DNA from: Candidatus Binatia bacterium
GTDB taxonomy: Bacteria; Desulfobacterota; Binatia; UBA9968
Assembly (NCBI GenBank): GCA_041483675.1
Contig: JBGPGE010000003.1
Coordinates: 22,502 to 86,501 of the forward strand
Length of the DNA stretch: 64,000 nt
Direction: 5' to 3'
Part shown: positions 15,389-19,145 of the stretch, piece after piece
Layout: the number at the start of each line of letters is the position of its first letter
Position numbering within the stretch: the stretch's first letter is position 1
Position numbers and translations under genes: made by a program
Notes under the pieces: model-generated
Told to the model about the DNA's origin: nothing
Databases searched by the model: none
The model's input: the letters and a program-made list of their open reading frames with translations, nothing else

Positions 15389-17092
15389 ATGTTGATTTCC
15401 CCCTACGGCGGGAGCCTGGTGAACCTGGTCGCACCGACCGAGGAAGTTGACAAACTCAGAGACGAAGCCGGGCGGCTGGCTTCGGTGCAATTGTCCGAGC
15501 GGTCGGTGTGCGACCTGGAACTGCTCGCCACCGGCGCCTTTTCTCCGCTGGACAGGTTCATGGGAAAAAACGACTACCGCCGCGTTTTGGGAGAGATGCG
15601 GCTTGTCGGTGGTCATCTATTCCCGATTCCTATCACCTTGCCCGTCGAGCCGGCCGCCGATTTCGGCCTGGACCGAGAGATTGCGCTGCGCGACAGCCAC
15701 AACGATCTGCTCGGATTGATGAGGATCGAGGAAATCTACGACTGGGACCGCGCTGGGGAGATGACTCAGGTCTTCGGCACGCGCGACCTCCGGCATCCGC
15801 TCGTCGCGGAGATGCACCGGTGGGGCAGGGTGAATATTTCCGGGCGACTCCGTGTGGTGCGACTGCCGCGCCACTATGACTTTCAGGATTTGCGTCTCGC
15901 GCCGGCCGAGACGCGAGCCAGGCTTGAGAAACTGGGCCACCGCAACGTGGTCGCCTTTCAGACGCGCAATCCCCTCCATCGAGTACACGAGGAGTTGACC
16001 AAACGAGCCACAAAAGAAGTGGACGGCGCGCTGCTCCTGCATCCTTCCGTCGGCATGACCAAGCCCGGCGACGTGGACCATTACACCCGGGTCAGGACCT
16101 ATCGGACCCTTGCGGAGCGCCACTATGCGCCCGACCGCATCCTGCTCGCCTTGTTGCCGTTGGCGATGAGACTGGCCGGGCCTCGCGAAGCGCTTTGGCA
16201 CGCCATCATTCGCCGCAATCACGGAGCGAACCATTTCATTATCGGGAGAGACCACGCGAGTCCCGGCGCGGACTCGACGGGCAAACCCTTTTACGGTCCC
16301 TACGACGCTCAGGAGTTGGTGGAACGTTATCGTGAAGAACTCGGCATCGGGGTCGTTCCCTTCAGCGAGCTCGTCTATTTACCCGACGAGGATCGTTATG
16401 AAGAGGTTTCGCGAGTGCCGGCCTCCGCGCGAACCGCGTCCATTTCCGGAACCCAGGTTCGGGAGCAGTTTCTCAACAGCGGCAGGCTGCTGCCGGATTG
16501 GTTCACCCGGCGCGAGGTGGCGGAGATTCTGGCGGACACCTATCCGCCGCGTCACCGACAGGGTGTGTGCATCTGGTTTACCGGCTTGAGTTCTTCCGGG
16601 AAATCGACGACTGCGGACGTGCTGACGGTGCTGCTGCTGGAGCAGGGGCGCCAAGTGACGATACTGGACGGCGATATCGTCCGGACCCATCTCTCCAAGG
16701 GACTCGGTTTCAACAAGGAAGATCGCGATATCAACATCCGGCGGATCGGTTTCGTCGCCGCCGAGATCGTCCGGCACGGAGGAGCGGTGATCTGTGCCGC
16801 CGTGAGTCCTTACCGGGAGACGCGCAACGACGCGCGTAATATGGTGGGGGAGGACCGCTTTGTCGAGGTCTACGTCAGCACGCCCCTTGAGGTATGCGAG
16901 CAGCGCGACGCCAAAGGTTTCTACGCCAAGGCGCGTCGAGGAGAGATTAAAGGATTTACCGGGATCGACGATCCCTACGAGCCGCCCGAGAACCCGGAGA
17001 TCACGCTCGACACGGTTGCCCGGGCACCCGAGGAGAACGCGCGGCAAATCCTTCACTATCTGGTGAAAGCGGGATTCGTTCGAGAACCGTAG
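15389..17092 (+). CDS. Bifunctional sulfate adenylyltransferase (ATP sulfurylase) / adenylylsulfate kinase (PAPS synthase)
   Basis: N-terminal Sat-type domain with [17 protein letters not shown] and GRDHASPG motifs. C-terminal APS kinase has P-loop GLSSSGKST and the CysC fold. ATG at 15389 is preceded by GAGGTGTCGAGG. Confidence 0.85.
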
Positions 17093-17173
17093 AACGATCG
17101 GTCGCTTACGTTTCACCGCGCCGTCTGGCGCCGCCGGCTTTTGCTTACGGACTACCGGAAATAATCGAGACCC

Positions 17174-18205
17174 ATGACGACAAGCCACGTCAGCTGCATC
17201 GTCGGAATGCACCGCAGCGGGACTTCTATGGTCTCGCGGCTGCTCAATCTTTGCGGGCTCGACCTGGGGCGGCCTTACGAACTTACGGAGGCCAACAAAA
17301 ATAATCCGGTCGGTTATTTCGAGAACAAAGCCTTCAATAAGATCAACCGGGCGCTCCTGTCGCACCTAGGAAAGAGCTGGGCCAATCCGCCGGCGATCGG
17401 CGACGGATGGGAGACCGATCCGGCGTTGGCGGCGCTTGCCGAGGAGGGCCGGCGCGTGATCGAGAGCTTTGCCGGCAGCCCGCACTGGGGCTGGAAAGAC
17501 CCCAAGACCACGGTGGTCTTGCCCTTTTGGCAGCGCTTGCTTCCCGGGATGCGCTATGTCGTTTGCCTGCGCAACCCGGTGGAGGTGGCCGAGTCGCTGG
17601 CGAAGCGCAACGGCTTTCCGATCGAGCATGGCGCCTATCTGTGGCATCACTACACGCGCGCCGCGATCCGGTACACGGAAGGGCGCCGGAGGATATTTGC
17701 TTTTTACGAGGATTTTTTTACCGACGGCGCGGCGGAACTCGAGAGATTAGCGGTATTTTGCGGTTTGGGAGCGGCGGGCGATCGGAGCCATGCGTTGGAG
17801 ACGATCCTGCCCGATCTGCGTCACCATCGGGATCAAACCGCTCGACTCTTAGACCACGCCGAAATTGCGGCCGAGCACAAACTGTTTTACCTAGGACTCC
17901 GGGCCTTGGCCGCCGTAGAGCCGACGGATGCAGACGTTGACGGGGAGAGGGAGGCCGTTGTCTCCGAGAGAGTCGCGCGGATGGAGAGTCTCTTTGCGGC
18001 TTTCGAGGACCAGCAGCCGATCGCGCGCCTCGAATCCGAACTGGCGGAAAAGGAGCAGCGGCTGCGGGAACTCCACGCCAAACTTCGACGCGTGGAAGAG
18101 GCCGTGGCGGAGAGTCGCAGAAAATGGGGTTTCAGGTTGGCGACCGGGCTCGGCAGAATTTTTCGAATGGAAAAGTCTGCCGCGGGCGCGCGGAAACGGT
18201 CATAA
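17174..18205 (+). CDS. Sulfotransferase family protein
   Basis: 5'-PSB motif GMHRSGTS near the N-terminus and 3'-PB CLRNPVEVAESL (RNP) match PAPS-dependent sulfotransferases (Stf0/NodH-like). A coiled-coil C-terminus follows. Confidence 0.75.
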   Translation: MTTSHVSCIVGMHRSGTSMVSRLLNLCGLDLGRPYELTEANKNNPVGYFENKAFNKINRALLSHLGKSWANPPAIGDGWETDPALAALAEEGRRVIESFAGSPHWGWKDPKTTVVLPFWQRLLPGMRYVVCLRNPVEVAESLAKRNGFPIEHGAYLWHHYTRAAIRYTEGRRRIFAFYEDFFTDGAAELERLAVFCGLGAAGDRSHALETILPDLRHHRDQTARLLDHAEIAAEHKLFYLGLRALAAVEPTDADVDGEREAVVSERVARMESLFAAFEDQQPIARLESELAEKEQRLRELHAKLRRVEEAVAESRRKWGFRLATGLGRIFRMEKSAAGARKRS

Positions 18206-18239
18206 CGGTTGCGCCGTCGAAAGGAGTGACCCGCTTCCG

Positions 18240-19145
18240 ATGATCAGCGAATTGAAGTGGCGCTATCTCGACAATCTCGGTCCGCTGCTGGCTCATCGGC
18301 GGGAGCGGCAGCCACTGGCCGGCGAGGCGGCGCGTGTAGTCGCCGAGTTGAATCGGAACGGCATCGCGATGACGTCGGTGGCCGCCCTGCTGCGCGATGG
18401 GTCGTTTTTTTCCTCGCTTGAGACCGCCGTCGCCGAGTTGGAGCGGCTGGCGGCGGACGAGATCGCGGCGGCGAGACAGGCCGCCAATCGCGCCGACGGC
18501 TGGAAAACCTATCTTATTGAGTTTCTCGGAAAACATCCCGTGCTCGAGCCGCAGAGCGTTTGCGCCCGTTTTGCGTTGCAGCCGGAGATCCTCAACATCG
18601 CCAATGCGTACTTCGGGATGCGCACCCGGCTCAGGACCTATAATGTCTGGCGCAACTTCGCCACGAAAATAGCGCCGCGCAACTCCCAACTCTGGCACCG
18701 CGATCCCGAGGATCGTTACGTGCTGAAACTGTTTGTGTATCTCGACGATGTGGATCGGGGCTGCGGCCCCATCGCCTACGCGGCGGGCAGCCATCCCAAG
18801 CGGGGATTGAAGCGGGCGCCGGCTTTCACGAAGACGGCTGAGGACAAGGCGAGGCGCAGCGACGACGGCCAGATGGCCGAGGTGGCGCCGCGGGACCGCT
18901 GGATCGACGGGATCGGTCCTAAAGGGACGATGGTCTTTGCGGATACGCGGGGATATCACAAGGGCGGGCAGGCGACGGAGCGCGAGCGGCTCCTGTATAT
19001 GTGCATGTTTACCTCCAGAGCCTCGAGATATCCGGAAGGCTTTACGCGTCCTGCGGGGTTTGCCGCCCCGGAGGGAATCGACCGAGAACAGATGTTCGCC
19101 CTAAGCGCCGAGGACAGGGAGCAACGTGGTTTGGAAAGGCGTTAA
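18240..19145 (+). CDS. Phytanoyl-CoA dioxygenase (PhyH)-family Fe(II)/2-oxoglutarate oxygenase
   Basis: HRDPED (H-x-D) and a later GSH...R resemble the PhyH double-stranded beta-helix facial triad. GTG start has AAAGGAG upstream. Confidence 0.7.
   Translation: MISELKWRYLDNLGPLLAHRRERQPLAGEAARVVAELNRNGIAMTSVAALLRDGSFFSSLETAVAELERLAADEIAAARQAANRADGWKTYLIEFLGKHPVLEPQSVCARFALQPEILNIANAYFGMRTRLRTYNVWRNFATKIAPRNSQLWHRDPEDRYVLKLFVYLDDVDRGCGPIAYAAGSHPKRGLKRAPAFTKTAEDKARRSDDGQMAEVAPRDRWIDGIGPKGTMVFADTRGYHKGGQATERERLLYMCMFTSRASRYPEGFTRPAGFAAPEGIDREQMFALSAEDREQRGLERR

Follow-up and report, generated by a model that had tools for sequence, protein, structure and literature searches.

Three plus-strand genes, encoding a predicted PAPS synthase, a PF13469 sulfotransferase and a PhyH-clan oxygenase, occupy positions 15389 to 19145 of the window (the whole 64-kb stretch of DNA analyzed here). 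They are enclosed, together with a nonulosonic-acid pathway (NeuB, CMP-transferase and HAD genes), in a 28-kb lipopolysaccharide (LPS) core cluster located on one strand (Table 1). The core signature comprises two GT9 heptosyltransferase-family genes, three Kdo/WaaP-family kinases, an ArnT-like PMT_2 gene and an RfaE-type kinase. The same-strand array is uninterrupted: the gaps at the block are short (62, 81, 34 and 17 bp), and terminator-like sites are no more frequent than chance would give (10 observed, 9.4 expected). The original prediction had placed a fused ATP-sulfurylase/APS-kinase, a sulfotransferase and a PhyH-type oxygenase here, between glycosyltransferases. All three genes gave profile matches far beyond chance and GT4 genes were indeed found on either side; the context can be narrowed further, to LPS core and nonulosonic-acid synthesis. 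Searches of the 64-kb window found no wzm/wzt, wzx/wzy or waaL, so a classical polymerase-terminator-exporter system is not visible at the locus.

Table 1. Features of the LPS core cluster and the sulfation block (window coordinates)
Feature	Position	Strand	Evidence and remarks
Upstream LPS core genes, overall span	5312..14477	+	
GT9	5312-6745 and 8208-9332	+	Upstream LPS core; profile search
WaaP/Kdo kinases	7516-8295 and 9106-10188	+	Upstream LPS core; profile search
PMT_2/ArnT-like	10158-11639	+	Upstream LPS core; profile search
Two weak methyltransferase-like ORFs	11877-13261	+	Upstream of block
GT4	13323-14477	+	Upstream flank of block
Kdo/WaaP-family (PF06293) sugar kinase-like gene	14461..15327	+	Pfam Kdo E 1.1e-13 (longer ORF); 288 aa in public gene calls
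Sat-CysC fusion, predicted PAPS synthase	15389..17092	+	NF004040, 2gks, motifs of both domains
PF13469 sulfotransferase	17174..18205	+	Profile, alignment, AlphaFold model
PhyH-clan Fe(II)/2-oxoglutarate oxygenase, 301 aa	18240..19145	+	Invariant motifs, Foldseek
GT4 glycosyltransferase, closes conserved five-gene block	19163..20347	+	Pfam Glycos_transf_1 E 2.4e-33; start from public gene calls
CMP-ulosonic/nonulosonic acid synthetase-like cytidylyltransferase	20308..21102	+	PF02348 E 5.4e-22; PseF-like at 137 bits, under equivalog cutoff
NeuB-family ulosonic-acid synthase + cupin (sugar isomerase-like) fusion	21032..22753	+	PF03102 E 1.3e-40, Cupin_2 E 4.2e-14; under NeuB/PseI equivalog cutoffs
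HAD phosphatase	22777-23427	+	Same sugar pathway; profile search
GFO/IDH/MocA-like oxidoreductase	23438-24646	+	Same sugar pathway; profile search
Glycosyltransferase-like protein, ~485 aa	24701..26158	+	Weak BFO_1060-family (nonulosonic-acid transferase) similarity
Downstream glycan genes, overall span	26121..33327	+	
GT2	26121-27083; three more in 28624-31216	+	Downstream glycan genes
B12-binding radical SAM	27068-28540	+	Downstream glycan genes
GT4	31206-32312	+	Downstream glycan genes
pfkB/RfaE-type kinase	32287-33327	+	Downstream glycan genes

The five-gene block (kinase, PAPS synthase, sulfotransferase, oxygenase and GT4) is kept in relatives down to 54 to 67% identity, a synteny check that had been suggested with the original prediction. 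A close relative, RIFCSPLOWO2_12_FULL_60_19, has the same gene order at 82 to 93% amino acid identity and carries three extra sulfotransferases (four in total). All five genes, the closing GT4 included, are also present on a more distant contig (P0006/P0124, 55%/67% identity) and in L093. The kinase-like gene is a conserved partner upstream of the PAPS synthase, its position being maintained in L001 to L003 and on the P0006 contig. As closely related genomes differ in their number of sulfotransferases (one or four), sulfation may be a surface trait that diversifies rapidly.

The sulfate-activating enzyme and the sulfotransferase

The first enzyme of the block is a single chain of 567 aa with PUA_2, ATP-sulfurylase (E 4.6e-79) and APS_kinase (E 3.5e-64) domains, and it matches the NCBIfam equivalog NF004040 ([quoted passage not shown]) at 843.5 bits, well over the cutoff of 669. 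Among solved structures, its best match is the bifunctional SAT/APS kinase of Aquifex aeolicus (2gks, E 2.5e-228), with which it shares domain order and active-site motifs. Aligned to 2gks, both halves have intact catalytic motifs (QTRNPxHRxH, GRDHA, the kinase P-loop GxxxxGKS/T and DGD), and the residues of the P-loop GLSSSGKST and of LDGDIVR are identical or nearly so. This is unlike the fungal enzymes, in which the kinase-like domain is degenerate and regulatory. From its sequence it is thus a predicted PAPS synthase; nothing notable separates it from the Aquifex protein but its genomic role, the gene here being embedded in a glycan cluster.

The sulfotransferase (343 aa) matches Sulfotransfer_3 (PF13469) at 42.8 bits, against a cutoff of 27. 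Its profile matches are confined to PF13469 and PF00685, with none in NCBIfam; as no Stf0-type Pfam or NCBIfam model was matched at an E value of ≤0.01, identity with the LpsS/Stf0 family was rejected. In an alignment of 35 homologs, GMHRSGTS (residues 11 to 18) is at least 90% conserved and the 3′-phosphate-binding R133 and S141 are invariant, as are E50, K108 and H217, which bears out the PAPS-binding motifs that had been read from the sequence. The start at 17174 is backed by this conservation and by a public 343-aa call (P0241), while the other public call (P0001, from M19) would remove the GMHRSGTS motif. The AlphaFold model (pLDDT of 86.9) has a catalytic domain at about residues 1 to 250, a long C-terminal helix (258 to 342) and a basic/aromatic tail. 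A crude heptad scan was positive at 251 to 324, although the stretch is short (about 30 to 70 residues) compared with many family members; heptad-like stretches were found in 33 of the 35 homologs. Foldseek gave a probability of 1.0 to TPST2, Stf9, the OLS/CurM sulfotransferase, StaL and cytosolic SULTs, with low TM scores (0.3 to 0.55). The nearest structural neighbors were human TPST1/2 (E of about 6e-6, TM of about 0.5, 15 to 16% identity). Because the similarity is low and the nearest neighbors are tyrosylprotein sulfotransferases, the fold alone is uninformative about the class of acceptor.

Family neighborhoods of the sulfotransferase and the oxygenase

The sulfotransferase family is widespread, with representatives in at least 594 species genomes; its members have a predicted C-terminal coiled coil and are often found downstream of wzm-wzt. 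Its commonest neighbors are glycosyltransferases and Wzm/Wzt, with a Wzt-like gene within 10 kb in 17 of 80 genomes and a fused Sat-CysC within the same distance in 6 of the 80, all unrelated. The three nearest homologs examined outside the clade (L090, L172 and L173) lie in arrays of wzm, wzt with the C-terminal carbohydrate-binding domain (Wzt_C), in places a small methyltransferase-like gene, the sulfotransferase and glycosyltransferases. ORFs longer than 650 aa, in which the sulfotransferase is fused N-terminally to glycosyltransferase modules, occur in 22 of 67 loci, and all seven long fusions scanned begin with Sulfotransfer_3 followed by GT2, GT4 or WbsX modules. A similar build, an N-terminal modifying module followed by a coiled coil, next to wzm-wzt with Wzt_C or fused to C-terminal glycosyltransferase modules, characterizes the chain terminators WbdD (Escherichia coli O9a and Klebsiella O3 and O5), WbbB (Klebsiella O12) and ORF6-O7/ORF7-O4 (PMC11231755, PMC3482155), and it suggests that the sulfate might be a terminal cap. 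The caps known for the WbdD/WbbB type are methyl, methyl-phosphate and β-Kdo, to which this family might add sulfate; no sulfate cap is described in the literature that we searched. The window copy differs from that type in its short coil-like stretch and in the absence of wzm/wzt nearby.

For the oxygenase, the true start within the long ORF 17928-19145 is the ATG at 18240, preceded by AAAGGAG. The 301-aa protein scores 21.1 bits against Pfam PhyH (PF05721), just under the cutoff of 22, and many of its homologs have a precomputed match to this family. Its model (pLDDT of 91.6) has the double-stranded β-helix fold and matches PhyH-clan Fe/2OG oxygenases by Foldseek (E down to 8e-11, probability of 1.0), and the iron triad H153-x-D155...H240 and the 2OG-binding R250 are invariant in 37 homologs. 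The top structural matches, at only 13 to 20% identity, were proline hydroxylase H11, ColD, SnoN/SnoK, EctD, AviO1/HygX and KanJ; SnoN, SnoK, AviO1, HygX and KanJ share the fold and the HxD...H triad with it, and several of them act on sugar moieties. KdoO, a Kdo 3-hydroxylase with this fold and triad, hydroxylates the ulosonic acid of LPS (Kdo), but the oxygenase had no match to the KdoO family in Pfam at an E value of ≤0.01 nor any in NCBIfam.

That the oxygenase belongs to a sulfation module, as originally proposed, held only in part. It directly adjoins the sulfotransferase throughout the clade of the window, whereas in 80 metagenome loci of its own family the usual company is a homolog of the glycosyltransferase-like protein at 24701-26158 (39 loci, mostly directly downstream), a Wzt-like ATPase (29) or NeuB (26), and a sulfotransferase of the window's family is nearby in only 2. 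The window protein is 30% identical (E of 1e-29 to 1e-42) to the proteins found beside the oxygenase in L007 and L008, and the BFO_1060 family that it weakly resembles is a Tannerella Pse/Leg transferase family (PMC5420450). Since the oxygenase family mostly keeps company with wzt, NeuB or genes resembling nonulosonic-acid transferases, and is seldom found near sulfation genes, its membership in the module is tentative. We give nearly even chances to an activity unrelated to sulfation, in which the oxygenase would independently modify the nonulosonic-acid residue or its CMP donor, e.g., by hydroxylating the sugar or an N-acyl group. Besides the clade-wide adjacency, this is countered by Sat-CysC, which is near the oxygenase in 4 of the 80 loci and is its immediate downstream neighbor in 3 unrelated ones, and by sulfotransferases of other subfamilies that adjoin it in L117, L108 and L169. 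Such an activity is compatible with the pathway proposed below, which partly includes it.

Proposed sulfation of an LPS-linked glycan

The best explanation of the locus, and probably the right one, is the cytoplasmic, PAPS-dependent sulfation of an LPS-linked glycan by a self-contained unit. In the cytoplasm, Sat-CysC would make PAPS from sulfate and two ATP, and the sulfotransferase would transfer the sulfuryl group to a hydroxyl of an LPS-linked oligosaccharide or polysaccharide that the neighboring glycosyltransferases assemble on the cytoplasmic side of the inner membrane, so that sulfation would precede export. Given the terminator-like build (N-terminal catalytic module, putative coiled coil and basic/aromatic tail), we infer that the acceptor is most likely a residue at the non-reducing end of the outer glycan, an inner-core sugar being the less likely choice. 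The oxygenase would oxidize, most simply hydroxylate, a sugar of the same glycan, probably, in view of its family-wide neighbors, a nonulosonic-acid-type residue supplied by the NeuB, CMP-transferase and HAD genes just downstream.

PAPS genes and sulfotransferases within a polysaccharide cluster are an already published hallmark of sulfated polysaccharide synthesis (PMC11641403). Such clusters have thus been described and the family is common, so at the gene level these systems are not rare, contrary to what was first supposed. The sulfated capsule/O-antigen clusters of Vibrio sp. KMM 8419 and Cobetia marina KMM 1449 likewise embed PAPS-synthesis and sulfotransferase genes, but they have cysDN plus cysC instead of a fusion and are capsule loci with KpsMT-type export, whereas here the genes lie among those of the LPS core, including heptosyltransferase-family members, with no visible exporter. 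LpsS of Sinorhizobium meliloti carries out the PAPS-dependent LPS sulfation proposed here but is annotated as Stf0 family, and lpsS is not described within a PAPS-synthase block (PMC12445080 and, for the LPS sulfation, its reference 39). NodH, compared by description rather than by sequence, shares with the window enzyme the broad family PF13469 and an R-x-G type 5′-PSB loop (PMC11625862); its acceptor is a lipo-chitooligosaccharide and its gene lies in a nod operon with NodPQ, whereas no nod genes (nodABC, nodPQ) were found among the ORFs of the window.

Sulfate activation and transfer might also serve other ends. Bifunctional enzymes of the 2gks type are used for general sulfur metabolism in some organisms and, as the visible genome is limited to 64 kb, Sat-CysC could also supply a PAPS reductase encoded elsewhere for the synthesis of cysteine, its presence among LPS genes being coincidental. 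We regard this as very improbable: as originally predicted, the assimilatory context is missing, with no cysH, cysJI/sir, cysDN or sulfate permease/transporter genes in the operon or among the major ORFs of the window, and this, with the retained PAPS-binding residues, supports glycan sulfation. The sulfotransferase also lies immediately 3′ of Sat-CysC in a block that is still intact at 55% identity, and the fused enzyme recurs beside both families, as described above. A non-glycan acceptor (a protein tyrosine, as for RaxST/TPST, a lipid or a small metabolite) is likewise very improbable. The Foldseek ranking of TPST1/2 and the RSGT-type 5′-PSB loop common to TPST and NodH-type enzymes (PMC11625862) would favor it, but the TPST matches are remote, the neighborhood lacks genes of the RaxX/RaxAB type or for lipid synthesis, and the family is surrounded by glycosyltransferases and Wzm/Wzt, with many members fused to glycosyltransferase modules.

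Where on the glycan the sulfate would be placed is a separate matter. It could be a permanent anionic group on a heptose or hexose within the core, like the phosphates added by WaaP-type kinases, instead of a terminal cap. The block lies among inner-core genes (GT9 and three Kdo/WaaP-family kinases), directly 3′ of one of the kinases in a pairing kept in relatives, and the missing wzm/wzt and shorter coil point the same way. An internal position is nevertheless unlikely, as the family is otherwise linked to wzm-wzt loci and multi-glycosyltransferase, polymerase-like fusions and has GT9 nearby in only 2 of 80 loci. A broader scheme, which we put forward as speculative and rather doubtful as a whole, is that the sulfotransferases form a large uncharacterized chain-terminating family and that sulfate is an unrecognized non-reducing-end cap in Wzm/Wzt assembly, with the enzyme mounted on a coiled-coil ruler and the cap read by the carbohydrate-binding domain of Wzt. 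The lineage of the window would then have recruited such a terminator, together with the PAPS synthase and the Fe/2OG oxygenase, into an LPS core cluster, where hydroxylation followed by sulfation would cap an oligosaccharide bearing nonulosonic acid.

To our knowledge, sulfated lipopolysaccharide has been documented in only a few bacteria. Sulfate esters alter the charge of the cell surface, its binding of cations and the way in which phages, predators and hosts recognize it. If the predicted pathway is correct, an uncultured lineage of soils and aquifers makes a sulfated LPS. At the family level, a sulfotransferase appears to take the chain-terminator place in Wzm/Wzt glycan pathways of hundreds of environmental species, monoderm phyla included. 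Were the cap proposal to prove true for one system, sulfate would join the short list of glycan caps (methyl, methyl-phosphate and Kdo), and the family could become a source of new polysaccharide sulfotransferases, which are in demand for the production of sulfated glycans.

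Products of the sulfation genes

The three consecutive plus-strand genes anticipated as a sulfation module were found exactly at the predicted location, in a window of ca. 61% G+C (see the table). The fused ATP-sulfurylase/APS-kinase proved to be in place, as the protein passed the NCBIfam equivalog for bifunctional sulfate adenylyltransferase/adenylylsulfate kinase (Sat-CysC; 843.5 bits versus a cutoff of 669) and aligned over its full length with Aquifex 2gks (E value of 2.5e-228), keeping the active-site motifs of both halves. On these grounds, it should make PAPS, the activated sulfate donor, beyond APS alone.

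For the sulfotransferase, an alignment of 35 homologs bore out the PAPS-binding motifs of the original prediction: the GMHRSGTS loop for the 5'-phosphosulfate and the R133/S141 pair for the 3'-phosphate were invariant or nearly so. The start codon agrees with one public call of the protein (P0241, 343 aa), while another (P0001, 325 aa) begins at Met19 and so lacks the GMHRSGTS loop (17174-17230); its precomputed Pfam match is merely "faint." Sequence searches against solved structures gave no matches above chance level for the sulfotransferase, the oxygenase, or the protein at 24701-26158, making fold comparison necessary, and NCBIfam has no model for either of the first two. The AlphaFold model of the sulfotransferase (pLDDT of 86.9) consists of a core (residues 1 to 250) followed by a single long C-terminal helix (258 to 342), and Foldseek placed it, remotely, among PAPS sulfotransferases (TPST2, E value of 6e-6; Stf9; CurM/OLS ST; StaL). 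The PhyH-type assignment of the oxygenase held for the fold and the iron-triad residues: its model (pLDDT of 91.6) matched PhyH-clan Fe/2OG oxygenases with E values down to 8e-11, and H153-x-D155, H240, and R250 were invariant in 37 homologs. However, the Pfam PhyH match was slightly under the threshold, and the true start is not that of the listed open reading frame (ORF).

Features of the window (positions in window coordinates)
Feature	Position	Strand	Remarks
Two GT2		-	upstream, opposite strand
AGE-family 2-epimerase	3880-5199	-	upstream, opposite strand
Two GT9 (heptosyltransferase family)		+	upstream of block; profile matches
Two Kdo/WaaP-family kinases	7516-8295, 9106-10188	+	upstream of block; profile matches
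ArnT-like PMT_2		+	upstream of block; profile match
Two weak methyltransferase-like ORFs	11877-12479, 12536-13261	+	upstream of block
GT4		+	upstream of sulfation genes
Third Kdo-family kinase	14461-15327	+	
Sat-CysC	15389-17092	+	567 aa; Pfam PUA_2 (2.5e-44), ATP-sulfurylase (4.6e-79), APS kinase (3.5e-64)
Sulfotransferase	17174-18205	+	343 aa; Sulfotransfer_3 above threshold
Oxygenase	18240-19145	+	listed ORF 17928-19145; ATG 18240 preceded by Shine-Dalgarno sequence
GT4		+	downstream of sulfation genes
CMP-sugar synthetase-like (CMP-transferase)	20308-21102	+	
NeuB-cupin fusion	21032-22753	+	cupin domain sugar-isomerase-like
HAD phosphatase	22777-23427	+	
Oxidoreductase		+	
Glycosyltransferase-like protein	24701-26158	+	485 aa
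B12-binding radical SAM enzyme	27068-28540	+	among glycosyltransferases
Four GT2, GT4, RfaE-type kinase		+	further downstream
UbiD-family decarboxylase	38507-39943		
Aminomethyltransferase-domain protein	40778-42796	-	672 aa; GCV_T C-terminal; ~310 N-terminal residues without domain assignment
Phosphonate-type transporter ATPase	44110-44913		
Protein without Pfam match	46678-47910		410 aa
MoxR-type AAA ATPase (bpMoxR) and VWA-domain protein	47934-50700	-	paired
Opine dehydrogenase/enolase-superfamily/M24 peptidase cluster	50768-56228		
UbiD-family decarboxylase	61387-62973		near luciferase-like monooxygenases and the preceding cluster

The surrounding cluster and its conservation

The genes form a cluster for the LPS core and outer core, which in addition produces a sugar of the nonulosonic-acid type. 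All real genes between 5312 and 34882 lie on the plus strand, with gaps of 62, 81, 34, and 17 bp around the block that runs from the third kinase to the downstream GT4; terminator-like sites were not enriched there, and a promoter/terminator scan of 13000-21000 performed no better than on shuffled sequence. Glycosyltransferases do flank the sulfation genes as predicted, with a GT4 on each side. The presence of three Kdo/WaaP-family kinase-like genes in one core cluster indicates that the glycan is probably phosphorylated as well as sulfated. The NeuB-cupin gene, the CMP-transferase, the HAD phosphatase, and the epimerase, with no aminotransferase or dehydratase genes alongside, look like a pathway of the KDN or Neu5Ac type that proceeds through a 9-phosphate intermediate; NeuB and the cytidylyltransferase scored under all NCBIfam equivalog cutoffs. 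The 24701-26158 protein showed weak similarity to the BFO_1060 family of Tannerella pseudaminic/legionaminic-acid transferases (PMC5420450). The radical SAM enzyme may act as a C- or O-methylase of sugars. Elsewhere in the window, the MoxR-type ATPase, the VWA protein, and the accompanying 410-aa protein resemble MoxR-vWA-beta-propeller ternary systems.

Identical proteins were found in GCA_041490805.1, two metagenomes, and an NCBI contig. The nearest named relative, Deltaproteobacteria bacterium RIFCSPLOWO2_12_FULL_60_19 (contig MGSS01000064.1; loci L001-L003 and L092), has the same gene order at 82 to 93% amino acid identity, with the decoration genes swapped. A Sulfotransfer_4 gene replaces the two methyltransferase-like ORFs, two additional sulfotransferases (Sulfotransfer_3/1) separate the ortholog of the window's sulfotransferase from the PAPS synthase, a methyltransferase follows the oxygenase, and the radical SAM gene is at another position, so that four sulfotransferases of different Pfam types stand against one in the window. 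Because of that Sulfotransfer_4 gene, the ORFs 11877-12479 and 12536-13261 were considered as extra sulfotransferases, but they resemble none and gave weak methyltransferase-like (FkbM) matches. The order kinase, Sat-CysC, sulfotransferase, PhyH-like, GT4 persists in a more distant contig (sulfotransferase 55% and oxygenase 67% identical), and in locus L093 the sulfotransferase and oxygenase genes remain paired. One clade has thus conserved the block as a unit, with a number of sulfotransferases that differs between close relatives.

Beyond this clade, the neighbors of the oxygenase family (491 detectable members) were counted over a set of 80 metagenome loci that included many short ones. A homolog of the 24701-26158 protein was present in 39, mostly as the next gene, a Wzt-like gene in 29, mostly just upstream, and NeuB in 26; the window's sulfotransferase family appeared in 2, both of the window's clade. 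The association of the oxygenase family with sulfation is above zero: Sat-CysC is the immediate downstream neighbor in three unrelated loci (L113, L117, and L124), and sulfotransferases of other subfamilies adjoin the oxygenase in L117, L108, and L169. Two of these NeuB/wzt/oxygenase/Sat-CysC glycan loci also encode NRPS-like proteins of ~1,500 aa (L117, 8896-13491; L124, 14318-18757) with the order formyltransferase, condensation, adenylation, carrier, thioesterase, which may acylate an amino sugar or nonulosonic acid.

Architecture of the sulfotransferase family

The sulfotransferase family numbers >1,100 detectable proteins in the collection searched, and its relatives occur in no fewer than 594 species genomes, from Binatia, Nitrospirota, Acidobacteriota, Planctomycetota, Verrucomicrobiota, Actinomycetota, Chloroflexota, Clostridia, and other groups. 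Among the best 80 genomic loci, a fused Sat-CysC (62 to 69% identical to that of the window) was found within 10 kb in 6, a Wzt-like ATPase over the same range in 17 (immediately upstream in 5), a GT9 gene nearby in 2, and the oxygenase in none. The three nearest homologs outside the clade on long contigs share the arrangement wzm, wzt (with Wzt_C), sulfotransferase, glycosyltransferases, and two of them have a small methyltransferase-like protein between wzt and the sulfotransferase (240 to 247 aa; L172, 7215-7958; L173, 7157-7879; also in L012). Together with the fusion of family members P0030, P0046, and P0057 to Methyltransf_12, these small genes suggest a combined methyl and sulfate terminal modification.

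The sulfotransferase domain makes up the N terminus of an ORF of 650 to 1,680 aa in 22/67 loci, and GT2, GT4/GT1, or WbsX modules follow after a gap of ~250 to 350 residues in all seven fusion ORFs scanned. The commonest upstream neighbors were GT2, GT1/4, ABC_tran/Wzt_C, and ABC2_membrane. Since ORF calling in foreign loci was crude (greedy and GC3 weighted) and left the sulfotransferase uncalled in 13/80 loci, the fusion and upstream-neighbor counts are lower bounds. Coiled-coil-like sequence of 30 to 180 residues lies right behind the catalytic domain in 33/35 stand-alone members and 16/17 fusions, by a crude heptad scan. The giant ORFs (1,100 to 1,680 aa; L036, L037, L042, L045, L067, L068, L079, and others), with an N-terminal sulfotransferase, a coiled-coil-like spacer, two to three GT2/GT4/WbsX modules, and sometimes C-terminal TPR repeats, look like single-chain polymerase-terminators. 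Two flagellins and two 2OG-Fe(II) oxygenases of another family (PF13640) among 127 upstream-neighbor ORFs hint at other acceptor contexts, such as flagellin glycans. In L091 (contig of P0008, ~825-5989), a 51%-identical sulfotransferase has a radical SAM/SPASM protein on one side and, on the other, a sulfatase-family protein of 838 aa; sulfation and sulfatase-type genes adjoin in this glycan locus, which also holds a second small sulfotransferase and phosphodiesterase-family genes.

Probable sulfate acceptor and possible chain-end modification

We consider it fairly probable, judging from sequence, that the cluster carries out PAPS-dependent sulfation of an LPS-linked glycan: Sat-CysC would feed PAPS to the sulfotransferase, which would place sulfate on the glycan at the cytoplasmic face. 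That Sat-CysC serves sulfate assimilation is unlikely in this context, cysH, cysJI, cysDN, and a sulfate permease being absent from the major ORFs of the whole 64 kb, in line with the original prediction for cysDN/cysH; the context makes a non-glycan acceptor unlikely as well. The main rival to sulfation of the chain end is sulfation of an inner-core sugar. Unlike the family pattern, the window's own copy has no adjoining wzm/wzt, and the terminator-like pattern is not directly demonstrated for it; a local check of the 64 kb revealed no wzm/wzt, wzx, wzy, or waaL among the major ORFs, the sole ABC ATPase match being the phosphonate-type one (22% identity). The family architecture nevertheless makes the non-reducing end of the glycan the more likely acceptor. 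The oxygenase would most probably oxidize a nonulosonic-acid-type residue, and a relay in which hydroxylation precedes sulfation is an appealing, if unproven, idea. The acceptor, the sulfate position, and the order of steps are inferences.

The only analog of sulfate as a glycan cap known to us is eukaryotic, the HNK-1 sulfotransferase, which reportedly acts on matriglycan. Our literature search yielded no description of a sulfotransferase as chain terminator and nothing relevant on a dioxygenase acting on nonulosonic acids. PAPS genes and sulfotransferases in a polysaccharide cluster are already published as marks of sulfated polysaccharide synthesis (PMC11641403), and LPS sulfation is known from LpsS of S. 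meliloti (PMC12445080); the window's sulfotransferase lies outside the Stf0/LpsS family and has only the broad family PF13469 in common with NodH (PMC11625862). In Aeromonas salmonicida, an ORF with a sulfotransferase domain, located between wzt and wbbB, was remarked upon as unexplained (PMC4483657). The coil, the glycosyltransferase fusions, and the wzm-wzt loci of the sulfotransferase family are the features described by the Whitfield laboratory for glycan chain terminators, namely, a modifying module carried by a coiled-coil ruler, in some cases fused to the polymerase modules, in ABC-transporter-dependent loci (PMC11231755; PMC3482155). This terminator-like pattern at the family level could be the part that is new.
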